Sequence record: PZ386951.1
DNA from: a phage
Strand: one strand, 5' to 3'
DNA: 64,000 bases
A program made the position numbers and the translations under genes. The notes beneath the pieces were generated by a model, which saw nothing but the letters and a program-made list of their open reading frames with translations, ran no database searches and was not told the origin of the DNA. Position 1 is the stretch's first letter; each line of letters starts with the position of its first letter. Shown here in pieces: positions 9,371 to 46,359 of the stretch.

Positions 9371-9388
9371 AAAGGGCCGAAGCCCTTT
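9371..9388 (-). promoter_or_regulatory. GC stem-loop (UUCG loop) overlapping the a-gt stop codon
   Basis: aaagggc cgaa gcccttt inverted repeat. Confidence 0.45.
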
Positions 9389-10589
9389 ATTTTGTAATAA
9401 TGTCAAACTGCTCTTTAAAGCAGAAGCTTGAATCTTGATGCTGATACAAAAATTCATATGCTTTTTCTCGCTCACGGTCATAAAGAGCTCGGTCAGATGA
9501 CAGTTCTTTAATACGCTCGAATGTTGATTCCATGTCATTTTCATCAAACCAAATGATACCGCTATCATGAGAAATTAATGGAGTGTTATCAACACGGAAT
9601 TTTAAATTTTCGCCCGTAGATTTCCAAAATACCGGAATTGTTCCACATGCACCAAGCTCGAGATGAGTATATTCTAAAGAGCGCTGTAGATATTTTTTAT
9701 CCAACTTACTCAACTGATAACCAAAACCGGATTTACTCATACGTTCAAGCATTTCGCTATTTACATAACGGTCAAGAATTTGCGTTGGCAAATTAGGAGC
9801 AATTTTAATTTGGTCTACTTGATGAAGACGATAATACTCGTATGGAATTCCTTTTTCTTTAATAGGAATGAACGCTGGAGAACGTTCTAGACCTTCCATA
9901 ATAGTACTTAGTCCTGCAGGTTTAAGATATTTTTCATGAAAATCAAACATCTGATAAAAACCTTTCCATGTAGTCGTACGACCAATCCAACGATTGATAT
10001 TCATGTTAATTTCAGAAACATCTTTCCAGTATGTTGATCGAACCTTTGCAATATCCATCGGAGGCTGAAAGTTATATACGGTCGGTGCTTCTTCAATATC
10101 ATCAAACAGAGAAACAGTTTCTGGATACCACTCTTTCATCAGAACTTTATTAAAATCACCATTATCAGAATGGCTAAAAATAACATCAGCCCGACGAACA
10201 GTTTCTTCTAATCCCAAATTTCGACGCAAAGAAAGAGAAGAATGGTCATGCTGATAAACTACAACACGAACCGAAGGTTTAATGTTATCAATAATTTTTT
10301 TATAGTTATTAATTGTGTCTTCTTCAACTGAAGTAGCAGGAACTGAATTGATAATTAGAATATCACAATCATTTACCAGCTTAAGTGTTTTATCGTATTC
10401 TTTTGCCAATAAAACAGGAATTGAAAATGATTTATAATCATGTGCACAGTTACGAGTAAATGATTTATCTTTAGCATAAACCAAAGTTACTTCATGACCA
10501 TTTTTAATAAACCAATCACGTTGCTCAAGAGAAAATTTAGTTACACCACAACCTTCAAGACCTCGAGCCATAAAAATACATACTTTCAT
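9387..10589 (-). CDS. a-gt: DNA alpha-glucosyltransferase (hydroxymethylcytosine glucosylation)
   Basis: 400-aa ORF MKVCIFMARGLEGCGVTKFSLEQRDWFIKNGHEV...; matches T4 AGT as recalled. Confidence 0.85.
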   Translation of the reverse strand: MKVCIFMARGLEGCGVTKFSLEQRDWFIKNGHEVTLVYAKDKSFTRNCAHDYKSFSIPVLLAKEYDKTLKLVNDCDILIINSVPATSVEEDTINNYKKIIDNIKPSVRVVVYQHDHSSLSLRRNLGLEETVRRADVIFSHSDNGDFNKVLMKEWYPETVSLFDDIEEAPTVYNFQPPMDIAKVRSTYWKDVSEINMNINRWIGRTTTWKGFYQMFDFHEKYLKPAGLSTIMEGLERSPAFIPIKEKGIPYEYYRLHQVDQIKIAPNLPTQILDRYVNSEMLERMSKSGFGYQLSKLDKKYLQRSLEYTHLELGACGTIPVFWKSTGENLKFRVDNTPLISHDSGIIWFDENDMESTFERIKELSSDRALYDREREKAYEFLYQHQDSSFCFKEQFDIITK

Positions 10590-35301: not shown

Positions 35302-35775
35302 TTATTTGAACGATTTAACGTACTGAATAGAACCTTTACTATTCACGAAAGCGATTTTACCATTTTTATTATACATGGTAGCAGTACGCTGATAACCATA
35401 AGTTTGCTTACCAGATTGATAACCAACTAATGCAAAATTATCTTCACCCATTTTATTCTGTTTAGCACGAATGCGTTCATGACCATGTGCCATAAGAACC
35501 TTAGCATCACCAGTTGCAATGGATCGACGAGTTTTTTCATCTTCAACTGTATTAACAAAATCGTCAAATGAATCAAATTTAGCGTGAGATTTATTATACA
35601 GTTTTCCATCTACTGCATAATTATATCCCTGTACATCCATCTCAACTTCTGTACCATCATCCAGTACAGCAGTGATTTTTTGACCTTTTTTAAATTTCAA
35701 AAGATCAGTAAAAGATTCAGCAATAATTTGAGATTTAATAGCTGCTTCAGTGATAAATTCTTGATATGTTTTCAT
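35302..35775 (-). CDS. internal-protein-like protein with capsid targeting sequence
   Basis: 157 aa; N-terminus MKTYQEFITE followed by AA matches the T4 internal-protein targeting sequence and prohead-protease site. Confidence 0.55.
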   Translation of the reverse strand: MKTYQEFITEAAIKSQIIAESFTDLLKFKKGQKITAVLDDGTEVEMDVQGYNYAVDGKLYNKSHAKFDSFDDFVNTVEDEKTRRSIATGDAKVLMAHGHERIRAKQNKMGEDNFALVGYQSGKQTYGYQRTATMYNKNGKIAFVNSKGSIQYVKSFK

Positions 35776-35784
35776 ATGTTTCCT

Positions 35785-36201
35785 TTAAATGTAAATATTT
35801 TTGCCGTAATACTTATACCAGTGCGGCTTCATTAAAATTTTTTCATCGAGTCGTTGTTGACTCAACCTAATAGCTGATTTGCATGGATTATAATCATTTT
35901 TCCATTCTACTGGAATATCACTGATGTCAGGAACTTCAGTATCTTTTATACTAAACCTGCGTTTTAAGCATTCCGTTATAATGTCTGATTGACGCTTTCG
36001 CAAAAATTCTAACTTATCGTAAAAGAACGTAACATGACCAGAACCTAAAATAAACTCGGAAGATATTTTAAAATCTTTAACCCGTTTACCATTTGCCACG
36101 TGTTTACGAATTATACCAAAAACACGTGGCAATTCACGGTATTCCGCGATTAAATGTTGATCAGCAAGTTCAGATACTAAAGTCAAATTAATACGAGTCA
36201 T
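35785..36201 (-). CDS. denV: endonuclease V (pyrimidine-dimer DNA glycosylase)
   Basis: 138 aa [29 protein letters not shown]...; matches T4 DenV as recalled. Confidence 0.9.
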
Positions 36202-36226
36202 TTTACCCCTCCAAGTAATTATGAAT

Positions 36227-36256
36227 ATACTATCACAATTCTAGGAGAAAGTAAAC
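36227..36256 (-). promoter_or_regulatory. sigma70-type early promoter upstream of denV
   Basis: On minus strand GTTTAC, 18-nt spacer, TAGTAT. Confidence 0.5.
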
Positions 36257-36258
36257 TG

Positions 36259-36561
36259 TTATTTACCTTTAATTACTTTAGCTGCTTCGATAGCCGCTTG
36301 CTGAAGGTCATCCATAGACATACCGAATTTAGAAGCAAAGTTATCAATTTTCTTTTCGACAGCATTCAAAGGCTTGGCCTGTTTACCTTCATTAGCGCCA
36401 GGAAGAGCGAGAATACGCTCTTTGTCAATATAAAGGCTTACAAGTTTCTTACGGTCTTTATCGGACAAATCATGAAATGAATGGGCCTTTTTATTTATAG
36501 CGGCTTCTAATTTACCTGCACTCACTCGCGCTTCAGTAATAAATTCTTGATATGTTTTCAT
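36259..36561 (-). CDS. ipII: internal protein II
   Basis: 100 aa; MKTYQEFITE targeting sequence; T4 position and size. Confidence 0.85.
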   Translation of the reverse strand: MKTYQEFITEARVSAGKLEAAINKKAHSFHDLSDKDRKKLVSLYIDKERILALPGANEGKQAKPLNAVEKKIDNFASKFGMSMDDLQQAAIEAAKVIKGK

Positions 36562-36602
36562 ATGTTTCCTTTAAATGTAAATAGGTCTGAGTATTAGCTT
36601 TA

Positions 36603-37181
36603 TTAGGAATTACGGGCTGCATTAGCAACGGCATACGCGTACTGAACATTAGCGTCTTTAAACGTACCTTTAGAGGTATCTATTTCTGCCTTAAAGCCGC
36701 CTTTAGTCATAACATCGGCAAATTCTTTACGGAAAGCCATTGCATCAAGACCTTTCCATGATGATTTATGCTTGGCGAATTCAAGACCAGCGTAGTTGAC
36801 AGCCTTAGCTAATTTATTATCAATAACCCATTTACCAGCTTTAGGCACAAACTTCGGGCCTTTCTGTTTAGAGAACAGTTTTAAATTCCAGCGGCGAAGG
36901 TCACTGTCGGCTTTAACAAAAGCTGCGTCTAAGTTACTAGCAACAACATCTTCAATATGAGCAAATTTAAGTCCGTCAACTTCAATATTTAGATCGGTAC
37001 GCCAGCGAAGTCCTTCCCAAGCGAAGGCTTTAAAGTCGGAAGCCTTTGTAGCTAAGTACCGTTCAATAGGAGCTGTTTTAGGGTCAAAGCCGTTTCCTGA
37101 TCGGTAGGTCCACTCATCTTTGTTAATGCCTTTGGCCTTTACTACAGAAACTTCGGCAATAAATTCTTGATATGTTTTCAT
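36603..37181 (-). CDS. ipIII: internal protein III
   Basis: 192 aa; MKTYQEFIAE targeting sequence; T4 position. Confidence 0.85.
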   Translation of the reverse strand: MKTYQEFIAEVSVVKAKGINKDEWTYRSGNGFDPKTAPIERYLATKASDFKAFAWEGLRWRTDLNIEVDGLKFAHIEDVVASNLDAAFVKADSDLRRWNLKLFSKQKGPKFVPKAGKWVIDNKLAKAVNYAGLEFAKHKSSWKGLDAMAFRKEFADVMTKGGFKAEIDTSKGTFKDANVQYAYAVANAARNS

Positions 37182-42279: not shown

Positions 42280-42355
42280 TGGTCGAGGCAGTAGGGATCG
42301 AACCTACGACCTAGGACTTAGAAGGTCCTTGCTCTTCCTTCTGAGCTATGCCTCG
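42280..42355 (-). tRNA. tRNA-Arg (anticodon UCU)
   Basis: Hand-folded cloverleaf: acceptor CGAGGCA/TGCCTCG, anticodon loop CTTCTAA, T-loop TTCGATC, encoded CCA. Confidence 0.8.
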
Positions 42356-42359
42356 GATT

Positions 42360-42434
42360 TGGCGGACGTGATAGGATTCGAACCTATAACCAATCGCTTA
42401 ACAGGCGATCGCTCTGCCATTGAGCTACACATCC
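42360..42434 (-). tRNA. tRNA-Asn (anticodon GUU)
   Basis: Hand-folded: anticodon stem ATCGC/GCGAT, loop CTGTTAA, T-loop TTCGAAT, encoded CCA. Confidence 0.7.
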
Positions 42435-42438
42435 AAAT

Positions 42439-42525
42439 TGGTGGGGAGTGATGGAGTCGAACCACCCGAGTCGCAATGACAATGGATTTACAGTCCACAC
42501 CGCTACCTCTACGGGATAACTCCCC
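42439..42525 (-). tRNA. tRNA-Tyr (anticodon GUA), class II with long variable arm
   Basis: Hand-folded: acceptor GGGGAGT/ACTCCCC, anticodon loop CTGTAAA, long variable arm, T-loop TTCGACT, encoded CCA. Confidence 0.65.
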
Positions 42526-42537
42526 TAATTCATAATT

Positions 42538-42612
42538 TGGTGGCCCTGGGTGGAATTGAACCACCATCTGGCGATTATGAGTCGCTTGCTTGAACCTTCC
42601 AGCTACAGGGCC
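42538..42612 (-). tRNA. tRNA with CAU anticodon (Ile2 lysidine-type, as in T4, or Met)
   Basis: Hand-folded: acceptor GGCCCTG/CAGGGCC, anticodon loop CTCATAA, T-loop TTCAATT, encoded CCA. Confidence 0.7.
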
Positions 42613-42621
42613 AAATTTTTC

Positions 42622-43107
42622 TTATTTTATGTAATATTTATTTAAAAACTTTCTAGCTTGAGTGTGGCTAACATTTATAGCATTTGCATAATTTTTAATA
42701 AAACCTCGTTCATCCATATTAAAATTTTCTAATATTTTTAATCGTCTAGTTATCTCATCTTGACTTAAAGTACTTGCATTATTTTTAGAAATTTTTTCTA
42801 AGGACTGAACTGAGTGTTTTCGACCACTAAAATTAAAATTTTTAGATTTTGGAGGAAATCTATCATTTAGTCTGGCATCTTTTGTATTTTGATTATTGGT
42901 TGCGCAATATATGTTATTTAATGAATACGGTCCTTTATCACCAAAACGACACATGCAGTATTCATGACCCTTTCTTCCACGCTTATCATAATTTCCCGTT
43001 GATTTCCACCAATGCAACCACTCATCAAAAGTTAAATTCCATTCAATGTTTCTACGTATAGCAGAATTCCGCTGAGAAATATATTTTGCATAATCTTCTT
43101 TCATCAC
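42622..43107 (-). CDS. putative HNH-like homing endonuclease embedded in the tRNA cluster
   Basis: 161 aa; HEYCMCRFGDKGPYSLNNIYCATNNQN resembles a degenerate HNH/His-Me finger; C-terminal helix-turn-helix-like segment; sits between the two tRNA subclusters. Confidence 0.45.
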   Translation of the reverse strand: MMKEDYAKYISQRNSAIRRNIEWNLTFDEWLHWWKSTGNYDKRGRKGHEYCMCRFGDKGPYSLNNIYCATNNQNTKDARLNDRFPPKSKNFNFSGRKHSVQSLEKISKNNASTLSQDEITRRLKILENFNMDERGFIKNYANAINVSHTQARKFLNKYYIK

Positions 43108-43151
43108 AAATTTCTCTACTTATTACATACACTAAGCTAAATCAGCAAAAC

Positions 43152-43241
43152 TGGCGGAGGCGATAGGATTTGAACCTATGAGTCGCCGGAGCGACTGCCG
43201 GTTTTCAAGACCGGTGCATTAAACCACTCTGCCACGCCTCC
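43152..43241 (-). tRNA. tRNA-Ser (anticodon UGA), class II
   Basis: Hand-folded: acceptor GGAGGCG/CGCCTCC, anticodon loop CTTGAAA, long variable arm, T-loop TTCAAAT, encoded CCA. Confidence 0.8.
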
Positions 43242-43243
43242 AG

Positions 43244-43317
43244 TCTCCACGGCAGGATTTGAACCTGCGACATTCTGCTCCCAAAGCAGACGCTCTACCA
43301 AACTGAGCTACACGGAG
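43244..43317 (-). tRNA. tRNA-Pro (anticodon UGG), CCA not encoded
   Basis: Hand-folded: anticodon stem TCTGC/GCAGA, loop TTTGGGA, T-loop TTCAAAT; 3' end abuts tRNA-Ser without CCA. Confidence 0.7.
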
Positions 43318-43327
43318 TAAATTAAAT

Positions 43328-43401
<74 letters not shown>

Positions 43402-43406
43402 AAATT

Positions 43407-43493
43407 TGGTGCGAGAAGTGGGACTCGAACCCACAAGGAAATCATTCCGCAGCATTTTAAGTGCTGTGCCTTTACCAATTTGACCATTCTCGC
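43407..43493 (-). tRNA. tRNA-Leu (anticodon UAA), class II
   Basis: Hand-folded: acceptor GCGAGAA/TTCTCGC, anticodon loop CTTAAAA, long variable arm, T-loop TTCGAGT, encoded CCA. Confidence 0.8.
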
Positions 43494-43494
43494 G

Positions 43495-43567
43495 CTGGGA
43501 ATAAAGGACTCGAACCTTTGCATCTAGCAGTCAAAGTGCTATGCCTTACCAACTTGGCTAATTCCCA
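43495..43567 (-). tRNA. tRNA-Gln (anticodon UUG), CCA not encoded; 1 nt from tRNA-Leu
   Basis: Hand-folded: acceptor TGGGAAT/ATTCCCA, anticodon loop CTTTGAC, T-loop TTCGAGT. Confidence 0.75.
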
Positions 43568-43664: not shown

Positions 43665-43952
43665 TTACCATTTATGATAATACATATTTACGATGCATTC
43701 AAGACCCAAAGGATTCTTGAAAATATCATATTCAAGAGGACCTTTTTCCGTTTCAATAAAGAAATCAAAGTTAACTGTATTAAATTTACGGTCTTCCTTC
43801 ACTAATTTAACTTGAGAAGATGAACGGTCAATGTAAACCTTTTCAACTTCAAAACATGTTAAAACGCCATAATCATCAATCAAGGCTTTAGCCGCGTCTT
43901 GATCATATTTATATCCATTTTCAATGGACGATACTTTAGCATAAAGAATCAT
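43665..43952 (-). CDS. hypothetical protein
   Basis: 95-aa ORF between tRNA cluster and the ipI-position gene. Confidence 0.4.
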   Translation of the reverse strand: MILYAKVSSIENGYKYDQDAAKALIDDYGVLTCFEVEKVYIDRSSSQVKLVKEDRKFNTVNFDFFIETEKGPLEYDIFKNPLGLECIVNMYYHKW

Positions 43953-43955
43953 TAT

Positions 43956-44336
43956 TTACCCTTCATCAACAATAGTATGAGTGTGGGCATTTACAATTTG
44001 CCACCAATCAAAGCGATTAGAACCATACATTGGTTTGTTCTCATTTTCTTTGATAATGTCACGGAGTTCATCTTCGGTAGCGGCTTTCGCGATTAAATCA
44101 GCATATCCACCGCGAGGATAATAATTATCACCTGCAAAAAGTAAAAAGTTCGGTTTAATATTATTGAACTCTTCAAGAGTAATAACTTTTCCTGTCGGTT
44201 GAACAATCTCTACATATTTATATCCTAATTTTTGAGCAGCATCTACTGCTTCAAGCAAAGTATCATGAGCCCATCCAATTTGACAACCTGGCTTTTCAGA
44301 TGGATTAGCCTGATAATCCGCGTACACTTTATACAT
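43956..44336 (-). CDS. hypothetical protein; start taken at internal Met
   Basis: Track ORF 139 aa; start at MYKVYADYQ avoids overlap with the upstream ORF. Confidence 0.4.
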   Translation of the reverse strand: MYKVYADYQANPSEKPGCQIGWAHDTLLEAVDAAQKLGYKYVEIVQPTGKVITLEEFNNIKPNFLLFAGDNYYPRGGYADLIAKAATEDELRDIIKENENKPMYGSNRFDWWQIVNAHTHTIVDEG

Positions 44337-44337
44337 T

Positions 44338-44523
44338 CTATTCACCTTTAGAAATTTTATCCATAACGATAGCAATTAAACCAATTAAAAATGCTACTAC
44401 AAGTGAAAAAACATTTTCTGCTGTAGTCAATAATCCGCATATAAATCCAACAAACATTGAAAAACTAAAAGCAGAAGCAGAAATTGCAATAGCAACATTT
44501 CGAATTAATTCACAACGTTTCAT
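44338..44523 (-). CDS. small membrane protein
   Basis: 61 aa, two hydrophobic helices. Confidence 0.4.
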   Translation of the reverse strand: MKRCELIRNVAIAISASAFSFSMFVGFICGLLTTAENVFSLVVAFLIGLIAIVMDKISKGE

Positions 44524-44551
44524 TTTATTCTCCTCAGTAGTTGATAGGGTA

Positions 44552-44581
44552 ATAGTATCACTACCCTATCTAAAAGTAAAC
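44552..44581 (-). promoter_or_regulatory. sigma70-type early promoter with palindromic spacer
   Basis: On minus strand GTTTAC, 18-nt spacer, TACTAT; spacer contains inverted repeat gatagggta/taccctatc. Confidence 0.5.
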
Positions 44582-44815
44582 TCATTTTTTACGAAAAATT
44601 GATTTATTTTCTGCTGCCCATTTTTCAATAACTGCAGCCGGACCAGTAACAACAATTTTATCACCGTAATCTTCTGCGGCGAGTTGACCGAAATTATCTA
44701 ATGCATCACGAAGAACTCCATGAGGCATTTCACCCATTTTATCTTTCTTGCCAGTGTAAATAAACTCAACTTTTACATCAGAAGATTCAGCGATAAATTC
44801 TTTAAACGTTTTCAT
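44582..44815 (-). CDS. internal-protein-like protein with capsid targeting sequence at the ipI locus
   Basis: 77 aa; N-terminus MKTFKEFIAE followed by SS; directly upstream of 57B as for T4 ipI; shorter than T4 IPI as recalled. Confidence 0.5.
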   Translation of the reverse strand: MKTFKEFIAESSDVKVEFIYTGKKDKMGEMPHGVLRDALDNFGQLAAEDYGDKIVVTGPAAVIEKWAAENKSIFRKK

Positions 44816-44845
44816 TTTATTTTCCTAATTAATTTTGATGAGATA

Positions 44846-44875
44846 ATAGTATCACTACCTCATCAGCATGTAAAC
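44846..44875 (-). promoter_or_regulatory. sigma70-type early promoter with palindromic spacer
   Basis: On minus strand GTTTAC, 18-nt spacer, TACTAT. Confidence 0.5.
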
Positions 44876-44887
44876 AACTTTGTGAAA

Positions 44888-45584
<697 letters not shown>

Positions 45585-45585
<1 letters not shown>

Positions 45586-46310
45586 TATAGTACCTTTAGT
45601 GTATTTTTAATTTTAGAAAAAAGTTCTTCAAGAGAACCATCGTTTGTAATTACTAAATCGCCATCACGAATTGGCAATCCAGCTTCTGTAATATGTTTAT
45701 CATTGGATTTTTGACCAGGACGAACTACATGAATTACTGTAGCACCCATCGCCCTAGCCGCATCCATTTCATGATCTTGACGAGTATCAGGAACGATATA
45801 ATAATCATAACCTGAGTTAAATTTATCAAGATAATCTAAAGCAAATAATTTTACCCAGTACATGCGATCGAAGTTATTAACAATCAAATCCGTACCTAGG
45901 GCTTGCATCAGACGACGGACTGACCATTGATCTTCAATATTATTTATAACGTCAGTAATCTTGTTAAATGCTACGAAATTAACTGATTCTTTTCCTTCGT
46001 CATTAAAAACAAACACACCTTTAATTGGGCTTTTACCATTAAGATAGCAAAATGCTTGTTCCATAATCGTGATTACTTCTAATTTAGTCAGATTTAAATT
46101 AGTCTCACGATCATAGTCAATTCCTTCAAACTCTTTACGAGTTAAGCAAGGATAGTCAGTGTTTGCTGCAAATACTCCCCATGCATAAGCCAATGCATCC
46201 TTAATAGGACCAGCAAGTTGGTATTTAACTGCAGAATAATTGCTCATGATAAAATCAGCAGTAGTATCTTTTCCACTACGCTTTACACCGCTTAAAAAGA
46301 TTAGTTTCAT
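45585..46310 (-). CDS. 1: deoxynucleoside monophosphate kinase gp1
   Basis: Start taken at MKLIFLSGVKRSGKDT (241 aa); P-loop; matches T4 gp1 as recalled. Confidence 0.9.
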
Positions 46311-46359
46311 GTGTTTCTCCTCAAATTTAATTAAGATTATAACACACAAAACTGAAGCA

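Follow-up and report, generated by a model that had tools for sequence, protein, structure and literature searches.

The ipI-locus gene of a T-even phage encodes the internal protein Ip6, a probable inhibitor of McrBC restriction

Which internal protein is encoded at the ipI locus of the phage studied here, and which host nuclease might it counteract? Internal protein (IP) loci are hypervariable among T-even phages (PMC12373910; PMC2839356; PMC3012670; PMC9026906). In the stretch of 64,000 nucleotides that was analysed (sequence record PZ386951.1, hereafter the window), an open reading frame starting with MKTFKEFIAE had been predicted to occupy the T4 ipI position, between the tRNA region and 57B, and comparison with the T4 map agrees with this placement. 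The coding sequence (44582..44815, minus strand) comprises 77 codons and a TGA stop, and its 77-aa translation is MKTFKEFIAESSDVKVEFIYTGKKDKMGEMPHGVLRDALDNFGQLAAEDYGDKIVVTGPAAVIEKWAAENKSIFRKK. Direct reading of the sequence revealed a Shine-Dalgarno-like AGGA (44823..44826, minus strand) 7 nt 5' of the ATG. The synteny is that of T4, with gene 1 (dNMP kinase; 45585-46349), 57A (45343-45585) and 57B (44888-45343, minus strand), the last directly upstream of the gene, and with trna.4 (44338-44523), trna.3 (43956-44375), trna.2 (43665-43952) and a cluster of nine tRNA genes (42280-43567) downstream. Within the 57B-trna.4 interval, a promoter/stem-loop cassette stands on either side of the gene, as at an IP locus.

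The ip6 gene and its family

The gene at 44582-44815 is the known T-even internal protein allele Ip6 (IpVI), real and already catalogued. The original prediction of a protein with a capsid targeting sequence (CTS) at this locus is borne out by phrog_8111, tblastn and the CTS motif. Indeed, the profile match to phrog_8111 (PHROG 8111, 'internal virion protein') extends over 77/77 positions with an E-value of 3.3e-51, and the Pfam scan returned no family for Ip6. In tblastn, the proteins annotated as ipVI in GiZh (NC_054903) and Yersinia phage PST (KF208315) matched at 100% identity, Ip6 of T6 at 93.5% and the RB18/VR20 subtype at 73-78%; length, locus and flanking cassettes are the same in these phages. 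VR20 is annotated with ip6, and a note in the RB18 record reads 'similar to T6 Ip6'. The numbering and names of the ip series reportedly go back to Repoila et al. 1994 (EMBO J 13:4181), and the Repoila GenBank deposit for RB15 holds ip5, ip9, ip7 and ip8 in the 57B-trna.4 interval.

In total, 249 phage records with Ip6 were retrieved by tblastn, about 180 sequenced phages having it at 90% identity or higher, and in Gaprivervirus and Karamvirus phages the ipI locus encodes distant members (30-42% identity). The substitutions that separate the two main subtypes are concentrated in residues 46-70. When 1.84 billion cluster representatives were searched exhaustively with the profile HMM, 7 matches at E<=0.001 were obtained, of which 5 were Ip6 family members or fragments, and no bacterial or distant homolog that might hint at the origin of the fold came to light; as far as sequence comparison reaches, the family appears small and phage-restricted. 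Pairwise dN/dS values of 0.10-0.64 against diverged alleles (0.15-0.40 for the more diverged ones), being below 1, indicate that Ip6 is under purifying selection. A chance open reading frame was rejected in view of these values, the full-length phrog_8111 match and the 249 phage records. Two further open reading frames, one on the plus strand that overlaps ip6 (44720-44896; rejected as a true gene) and a small one on the minus strand (44566-44664), were without support. Rfam models matched nothing within 44300-45000, and no intrinsic terminator was found within 44300-45400.

Two records labelled 'Pseudomonas phage', OR584013.1 and PV654520.1 (PsgM02F and vB_PSGBLB0006), contain Ip6 at 94.8% identity, and PsgM02F also has ba-gt (99.3% identity). 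As these genes look typical of Tequatrovirus, the Pseudomonas host labels seem doubtful.

The gene product had also been predicted to be shorter than T4 IPI and different from it. Both points held, with 77 aa against 95 aa and an alignment confined to the N-terminus: BLASTP of Ip6 against T4 IPI aligned nothing beyond residues 1-14; of the 8 identities there, 7 make up the shared start MKTFKEF. A truncated IPI was rejected as an explanation, since similarity stops at residue 7, and BLASTP found none over the mature 76-residue IPI domain (residues 20-95 in PDB 2JUB). The Ip6 profile had no match to 2JUB among PDB sequences, and 2JUB was likewise absent from the fold matches of the Ip6 model. 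IPI* consists of two beta-sheets with terminal helices on either side (PMC3012670), whereas the Ip6 model is ferredoxin-like. The two proteins nevertheless share the genomic slot, a similar mature size (76 aa for IPI* and 67 aa predicted for Ip6*) and, as predicted for Ip6, the delivery logic of CTS, gp21 cleavage and injection. They differ in the length of the CTS, which is 19 residues in T4 IPI (cut after ITE19) and 10 in Ip6, and in charge, IPI* being basic (pI 9.0) and Ip6* neutral (pI 6.5). The locus is occupied by different proteins in different phages, with tblastn finding IPI in 291 records and Ip6 in 249.

Several observations concern the neighbouring genes. The product of 57B strongly matches Pfam Acb1, an anti-CBASS nuclease (E 2.6e-60), so that two anti-defence genes would adjoin each other; many records label 57B 'RNA ligase' or 'hypothetical protein'. 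In the tRNA cluster, T4 and GiZh have a tRNA-Thr between tRNA-Ile(CAU) and tRNA-Ser, whereas the window has a 161-aa open reading frame there instead (42622-43107, minus strand; phrog_16521, no Pfam family), and ARAGORN found no tRNA-Thr in the window. The stretch 42538-43241 is covered to at least 80% in only 26 of 636 matching phage records, and in one record a 'putative site-specific homing DNA endonuclease' is annotated under the match.

Capsid targeting, the predicted mature protein and the flanking cassettes

The first 10 residues of Ip6, MKTFKEFIAE (44786..44815, minus strand), form a CTS that ends in the I-x-E motif of the gp21 prohead protease. In T4 IPIII, the first 10 residues are enough for packaging, positions 4 and 7 being determinants of targeting and positions 8 and 10 of processing (PMC9026906). 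The corresponding residues of Ip6 are F4, F7, I8 and E10, with aromatic residues at both targeting positions, and these determinants are kept in all Ip6 family members, even the 30-42% identical ones. According to the motif scan, IAE at residues 8-10, followed by Ser, is the sole N-terminal (L/I)-x-E site; the one further near-match, V-I-E at residues 62-64, starts with Val rather than L/I and lies inside a predicted helix (H60-69). From the CTS, Ip6 is predicted to be packaged in the head and cleaved after IAE10; a search for virion proteomics of Ip6 found none in the searchable literature. Cleavage would leave a mature Ip6* of residues 11-77 (44585..44785, minus strand; 67 aa, 7.4 kDa, pI about 6.5).

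With 11 basic and 11 acidic residues, Ip6* has a net charge of zero, which does not suggest a DNA mimic. An AlphaFold2 model of Ip6 reached a mean pLDDT of 80.8, with residues 1-9 disordered, and the mature part is predicted to be a small ferredoxin-like domain of the order beta-alpha-beta-beta-alpha-beta. Searches of PDB and BFVD with this model matched generic ferredoxin-like folds and the protein's own family only, and such predicted likenesses give no clue to mechanism or function.

A six-frame scan of the window for the motif MKT(F/Y)(K/Q)EF returned only the Ip6 open reading frame and three others at a second IP locus (35302-37181, minus strand), which encodes three more CTS proteins. 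These are an IPIII-like protein of 192 aa starting with MKTYQEFIAE (36603-37181, minus strand; phrog_5341), an IPII-like protein of 100 aa starting with MKTYQEFITE (36259-36561, minus strand; phrog_7857) and a DUF7412 protein of 157 aa starting with MKTYQEFITEAAIK (35302-35775, minus strand; phrog_3155, Pfam DUF7412). Together with Ip6, the phage hence has at least four candidates for injected proteins.

The cassettes on both sides of ip6 were delineated by promoter scan and RNA folding. The upstream one (44836..44874, minus strand) contains an early-promoter-like TTTACA-17-TACTAT with a TG extension (44846-44874), which overlaps a 13-bp stem-loop at 44836-44865 (-14.8 kcal/mol, z -2.6). The downstream copy (44543..44581, minus strand), in the ip6-trna.4 interval, contains GTTTAC at 44576-44581 and a 14-bp stem-loop at 44543-44570 (-16.4 kcal/mol, z -2.8). 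Within the 64 kb of the window, exact copies of the cassette core GTGATACTATTA are confined to the two ip6 flanks; a pattern of fixed spacing gave no match, since the spacing varies, and it was the search for the core motif that succeeded. Across 12 cassette elements from 8 phages, 97.9% of cells were paired and 2 pairs covaried AU/GC, in a lenient test, as the elements had been picked for having this arm type. Such elements, reportedly also those of Repoila 1994, have been described as 'IP-associated, PeSL-like' (Arbiol 2010) and proposed to mediate the shuffling of ip genes (PMC2839356).

The content of the locus varies among relatives: ip5 and ip6 occur together in T6, PST, GiZh and Bas37, whereas ip6 stands alone in the window, RB18 and FL08. 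FL08, the closest annotated relative, shares the locus architecture of the window and its ip6 differs only at the stop codon, which is TGA in the window and TAA in relatives; RB18, also with ip6 alone, has another upstream spacer. No ip5 is present in the window (44816-44887), while Bas37 has one (bas37_0261, at 967-1224 of the Bas37 locus sequence). When 44795-44890 was compared across relatives, ip6 of the window was found to combine the 57B-proximal 'slot 1' 5'UTR with a first 21 nt resembling T4 ipI and T2 ip7. This combination, without ip5, points to a crossover in or beside the CTS codons. In GiZh, the first 21 nt of ip6 are identical to those of its ip5; T6 and Bas37 have the MKTYQEF version of the CTS start in ip6; and the last codons of 57B with their 3' flank (GATTTAAAATAATTTCACAAAGTTGTTTACA) recur after ip5. 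The mosaic CTS-coding 5' ends and the GATTTAAAATAATTTCACAAAGTTGTTTACA repeat are plausible recombination substrates for the gain and loss of cassettes.

McrBC as the probable target

The closest experimental evidence concerns the ortholog bas37_0260 of phage Bas37 (KarlGJung), located at 145553-145786 on the minus strand of MZ501089.1; these coordinates coincide exactly with those of the tblastn match, and the locus tag was confirmed. It is identical to the window protein at 73/77 residues (95%), the differences falling at residues 4, 5, 11 and 12, so that 65/67 residues of the predicted mature region and all of residues 13-77 are the same. The N-terminus reads MKTYQEFIAE-TA in Bas37 against MKTFKEFIAE-SS in the window, and the locus is alike except that Bas37 has ip5 upstream.

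A preprint of November 2025 describes transposon libraries made from T4 and the BASEL phage Bas37 and places bas37_0260 at the ipI locus with an internal-protein signal sequence (bioRxiv 10.1101/2025.11.20.689424). In that work, insertions in bas37_0260 were strongly depleted on E. coli K-12 BW25113 relative to clinical isolates (normalised counts of 8.4 against 309, log2FC 5.0, q reported as 0) and were not depleted on K-12 without mcrA, mcrBC and mrr, and a clean deletion of the gene made Bas37 specifically sensitive to McrBC (bioRxiv 10.1101/2025.11.20.689424). Insertions in the downstream bas37_0259 were neutral, which argues against polarity as the source of the phenotype, and those in the Arn gene (bas37_0090) were neutral in the comparisons retrieved (bioRxiv 10.1101/2025.11.20.689424). 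The McrBC evidence consists of one non-peer-reviewed preprint on one ortholog in one phage; complementation in trans, binding assays and virion proteomics of Ip6 do not feature in its available text. Given 95% identity and an unchanged sequence from residue 13 onward, the McrBC function can be transferred to the window protein with good confidence, and on this sequence identity we infer that the latter would also inhibit McrBC. The original prediction had proposed a nuclease other than that of IPI as the target; this holds, McrBC being most likely, via the requirement for the 95%-identical bas37_0260 on McrBC-positive K-12.

Ip6 resembles IPI* in having a type IV restriction enzyme as target, GmrSD-CT596 for IPI* and McrBC, from the ortholog, for Ip6. 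McrBC cuts 5hmC DNA unless it is glucosylated, and T4 Arn is a known expressed inhibitor of it (PMC12707154). Arn shares this host target with Ip6, as known from the ortholog, but it is made after infection and is a proposed DNA mimic that binds McrB (PMC12707154), whereas Ip6, with its CTS, would be pre-made and injected. Their genes occupy separate loci and are both present in Bas37.

Another conceivable target, as for T4 IPI*, IPII and IPIII, would be a type IV enzyme of the GmrSD family, which cleaves glucosylated hmC DNA. Ip6 occupies the ipI slot, and T4 Ip1, Ip2 and Ip3 each inhibit one distinct GmrSD (PMC12373910). In the same study, ip4-10 gave no reproducible inhibition of the active systems in a GmrSD panel, and T6, an Ip6 carrier, was restricted by GmrSD-ECOR17 and GmrSD-ECOR21; the panel covered representatives of 15 groups only, and GmrSD is very diverse (PMC12373910). 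From the negative outcome for ip4-10, plating on GmrSD hosts would probably be uninformative for Ip6. The target of Ip6 appears to be McrBC and not GmrSD, and we regard a GmrSD target as improbable.

Alternatively, Ip6 could act mainly as an early-expressed cytoplasmic inhibitor like Arn, with the CTS a relic and packaging and injection irrelevant to function. The early-promoter-like signal lies directly 5' of ip6, and the 72-nt spacer between 57B and ip6 contains no late promoter TATAAATA, the nearest on the minus strand being at 45941-45948. However, late read-through from that site, upstream of 57A, is possible, and the CTS determinants are conserved across the whole family. Moreover, McrBC would cut incoming DNA ahead of the build-up of an early protein, and Bas37 has Arn, yet this does not make up for the loss of bas37_0260. 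An early cytoplasmic role as the main one is thus hard to credit; still, the early-promoter-like signal and the lack of an adjacent late promoter suggest that some of the Ip6 acting in the cell may be newly synthesised and not injected. Least probable is an Ip6 with no specific target, a dispensable head-filling or DNA-associated protein whose variability is neutral drift. In its favour, laboratory growth does not require internal proteins, as with bas37_0260, which is classed as non-essential on the reference host, and T4 DNA has some 1000 IP molecules embedded in it (PMC3012670). On the other hand, comparison with the more diverged alleles shows the mature part of Ip6 to be under purifying selection, and alleles with differing synonymous sites have the same residues 13-77. 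Moreover, Ip6* is neutral, unlike a basic DNA counter-ion, it is predicted as a compact domain, and the phenotype of the ortholog depends on host genotype.

The reading that we consider probable is that ip6 is a T-even ipI-locus cassette whose product is packaged, cut by gp21, injected and blocks McrBC before phage gene expression. The 10-residue N-terminal CTS would take Ip6 into the scaffolding core of the prohead, where gp21 would cut it after IAE10. The 67-residue Ip6* would remain in the head and be injected with the DNA, and in the new host it would block the modification-dependent type IV enzyme McrBC ahead of any phage gene expression. In doing so, Ip6* may bind McrB or McrC directly.

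Partial glucosylation and host range

The usefulness of such a protein may be related to the DNA modification of its carriers. The window contains a gene for DNA alpha-glucosyltransferase (9387-10589, minus strand; Pfam AGT, E 4e-237), indicating that the phage has glucosyl-hmC DNA. The partner transferase gene (ba-gt or b-gt) would lie, by synteny with FL08, some 3.5-4.4 kb ahead of position 1 of the window; the ba-gt of FL08 is 100% identical to that of Bas37, and by sequence the closest relatives carry the T2/T6-type beta-alpha-glucosyltransferase. T2 and T6 make gentiobiosyl-hmC by means of ba-gt. In these two phages about a quarter of hmC is unglucosylated, whereas in T4 all hmC is glucosylated. 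As McrBC attacks unglucosylated hmC and ba-gt DNA would be partly bare, Ip6*, arriving with the DNA, may cover the exposed hmC until Arn can be made. Bare hmC in T2/T6-type DNA would explain the usefulness of an injected McrBC inhibitor.

The Ip6 carriers among the ba-gt matches listed, T6, RB18, KarlGJung, FriedrichMiescher and BCH953P4 included, all have ba-gt. From this correlation, drawn from sampled lists, we infer a link between Ip6 and partial glucosylation. Ba-gt was found in 688 records, against 249 for Ip6, and T2, with DNA of the ba-gt type, has Ip5 and Ip7 and no Ip6. Since T2 lacks Ip6 and ba-gt is commoner than Ip6, the latter is not the sole solution for ba-gt phages. A more far-reaching version, which we hold to be possible but rather doubtful, is that Ip6* arose independently as a third kind of type IV inhibitor, unrelated to Arn and IPI*: a 67-residue, ferredoxin-like, pre-made protein that directly jams McrB or McrC and is kept specifically by phages whose ba-gt leaves bare hmC. 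The Ser11-Ser12 allele with its IPI-type CTS could be packaged with a different efficiency, or act on further McrBC-family enzymes besides EcoKMcrBC.

In the HIDEN-SEQ tables for Bas37, one comparison shows a significant depletion of insertions in ip5 (bas37_0261; log2FC -2.09, q reported as 0), and those in 57B were likewise depleted (log2FC -1.56). There are hints here that Ip5 counters another defence, to which the phage of the window would be open.

For the window itself, these results carry little weight, as ip6 is catalogued and a report on a near-identical ortholog already names the likely target. Their meaning lies rather in the ip cassettes as a compact, swappable anti-restriction toolkit that sets the host range of T-even phages, so that the type IV restriction systems passable to a phage, be it therapeutic or environmental, can be predicted from its cassette content. 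The set of the phage in the window comprises Ip6 at the ipI locus, without Ip5, and, at the second locus, an IPII-like, an IPIII-like and a DUF7412 CTS protein.
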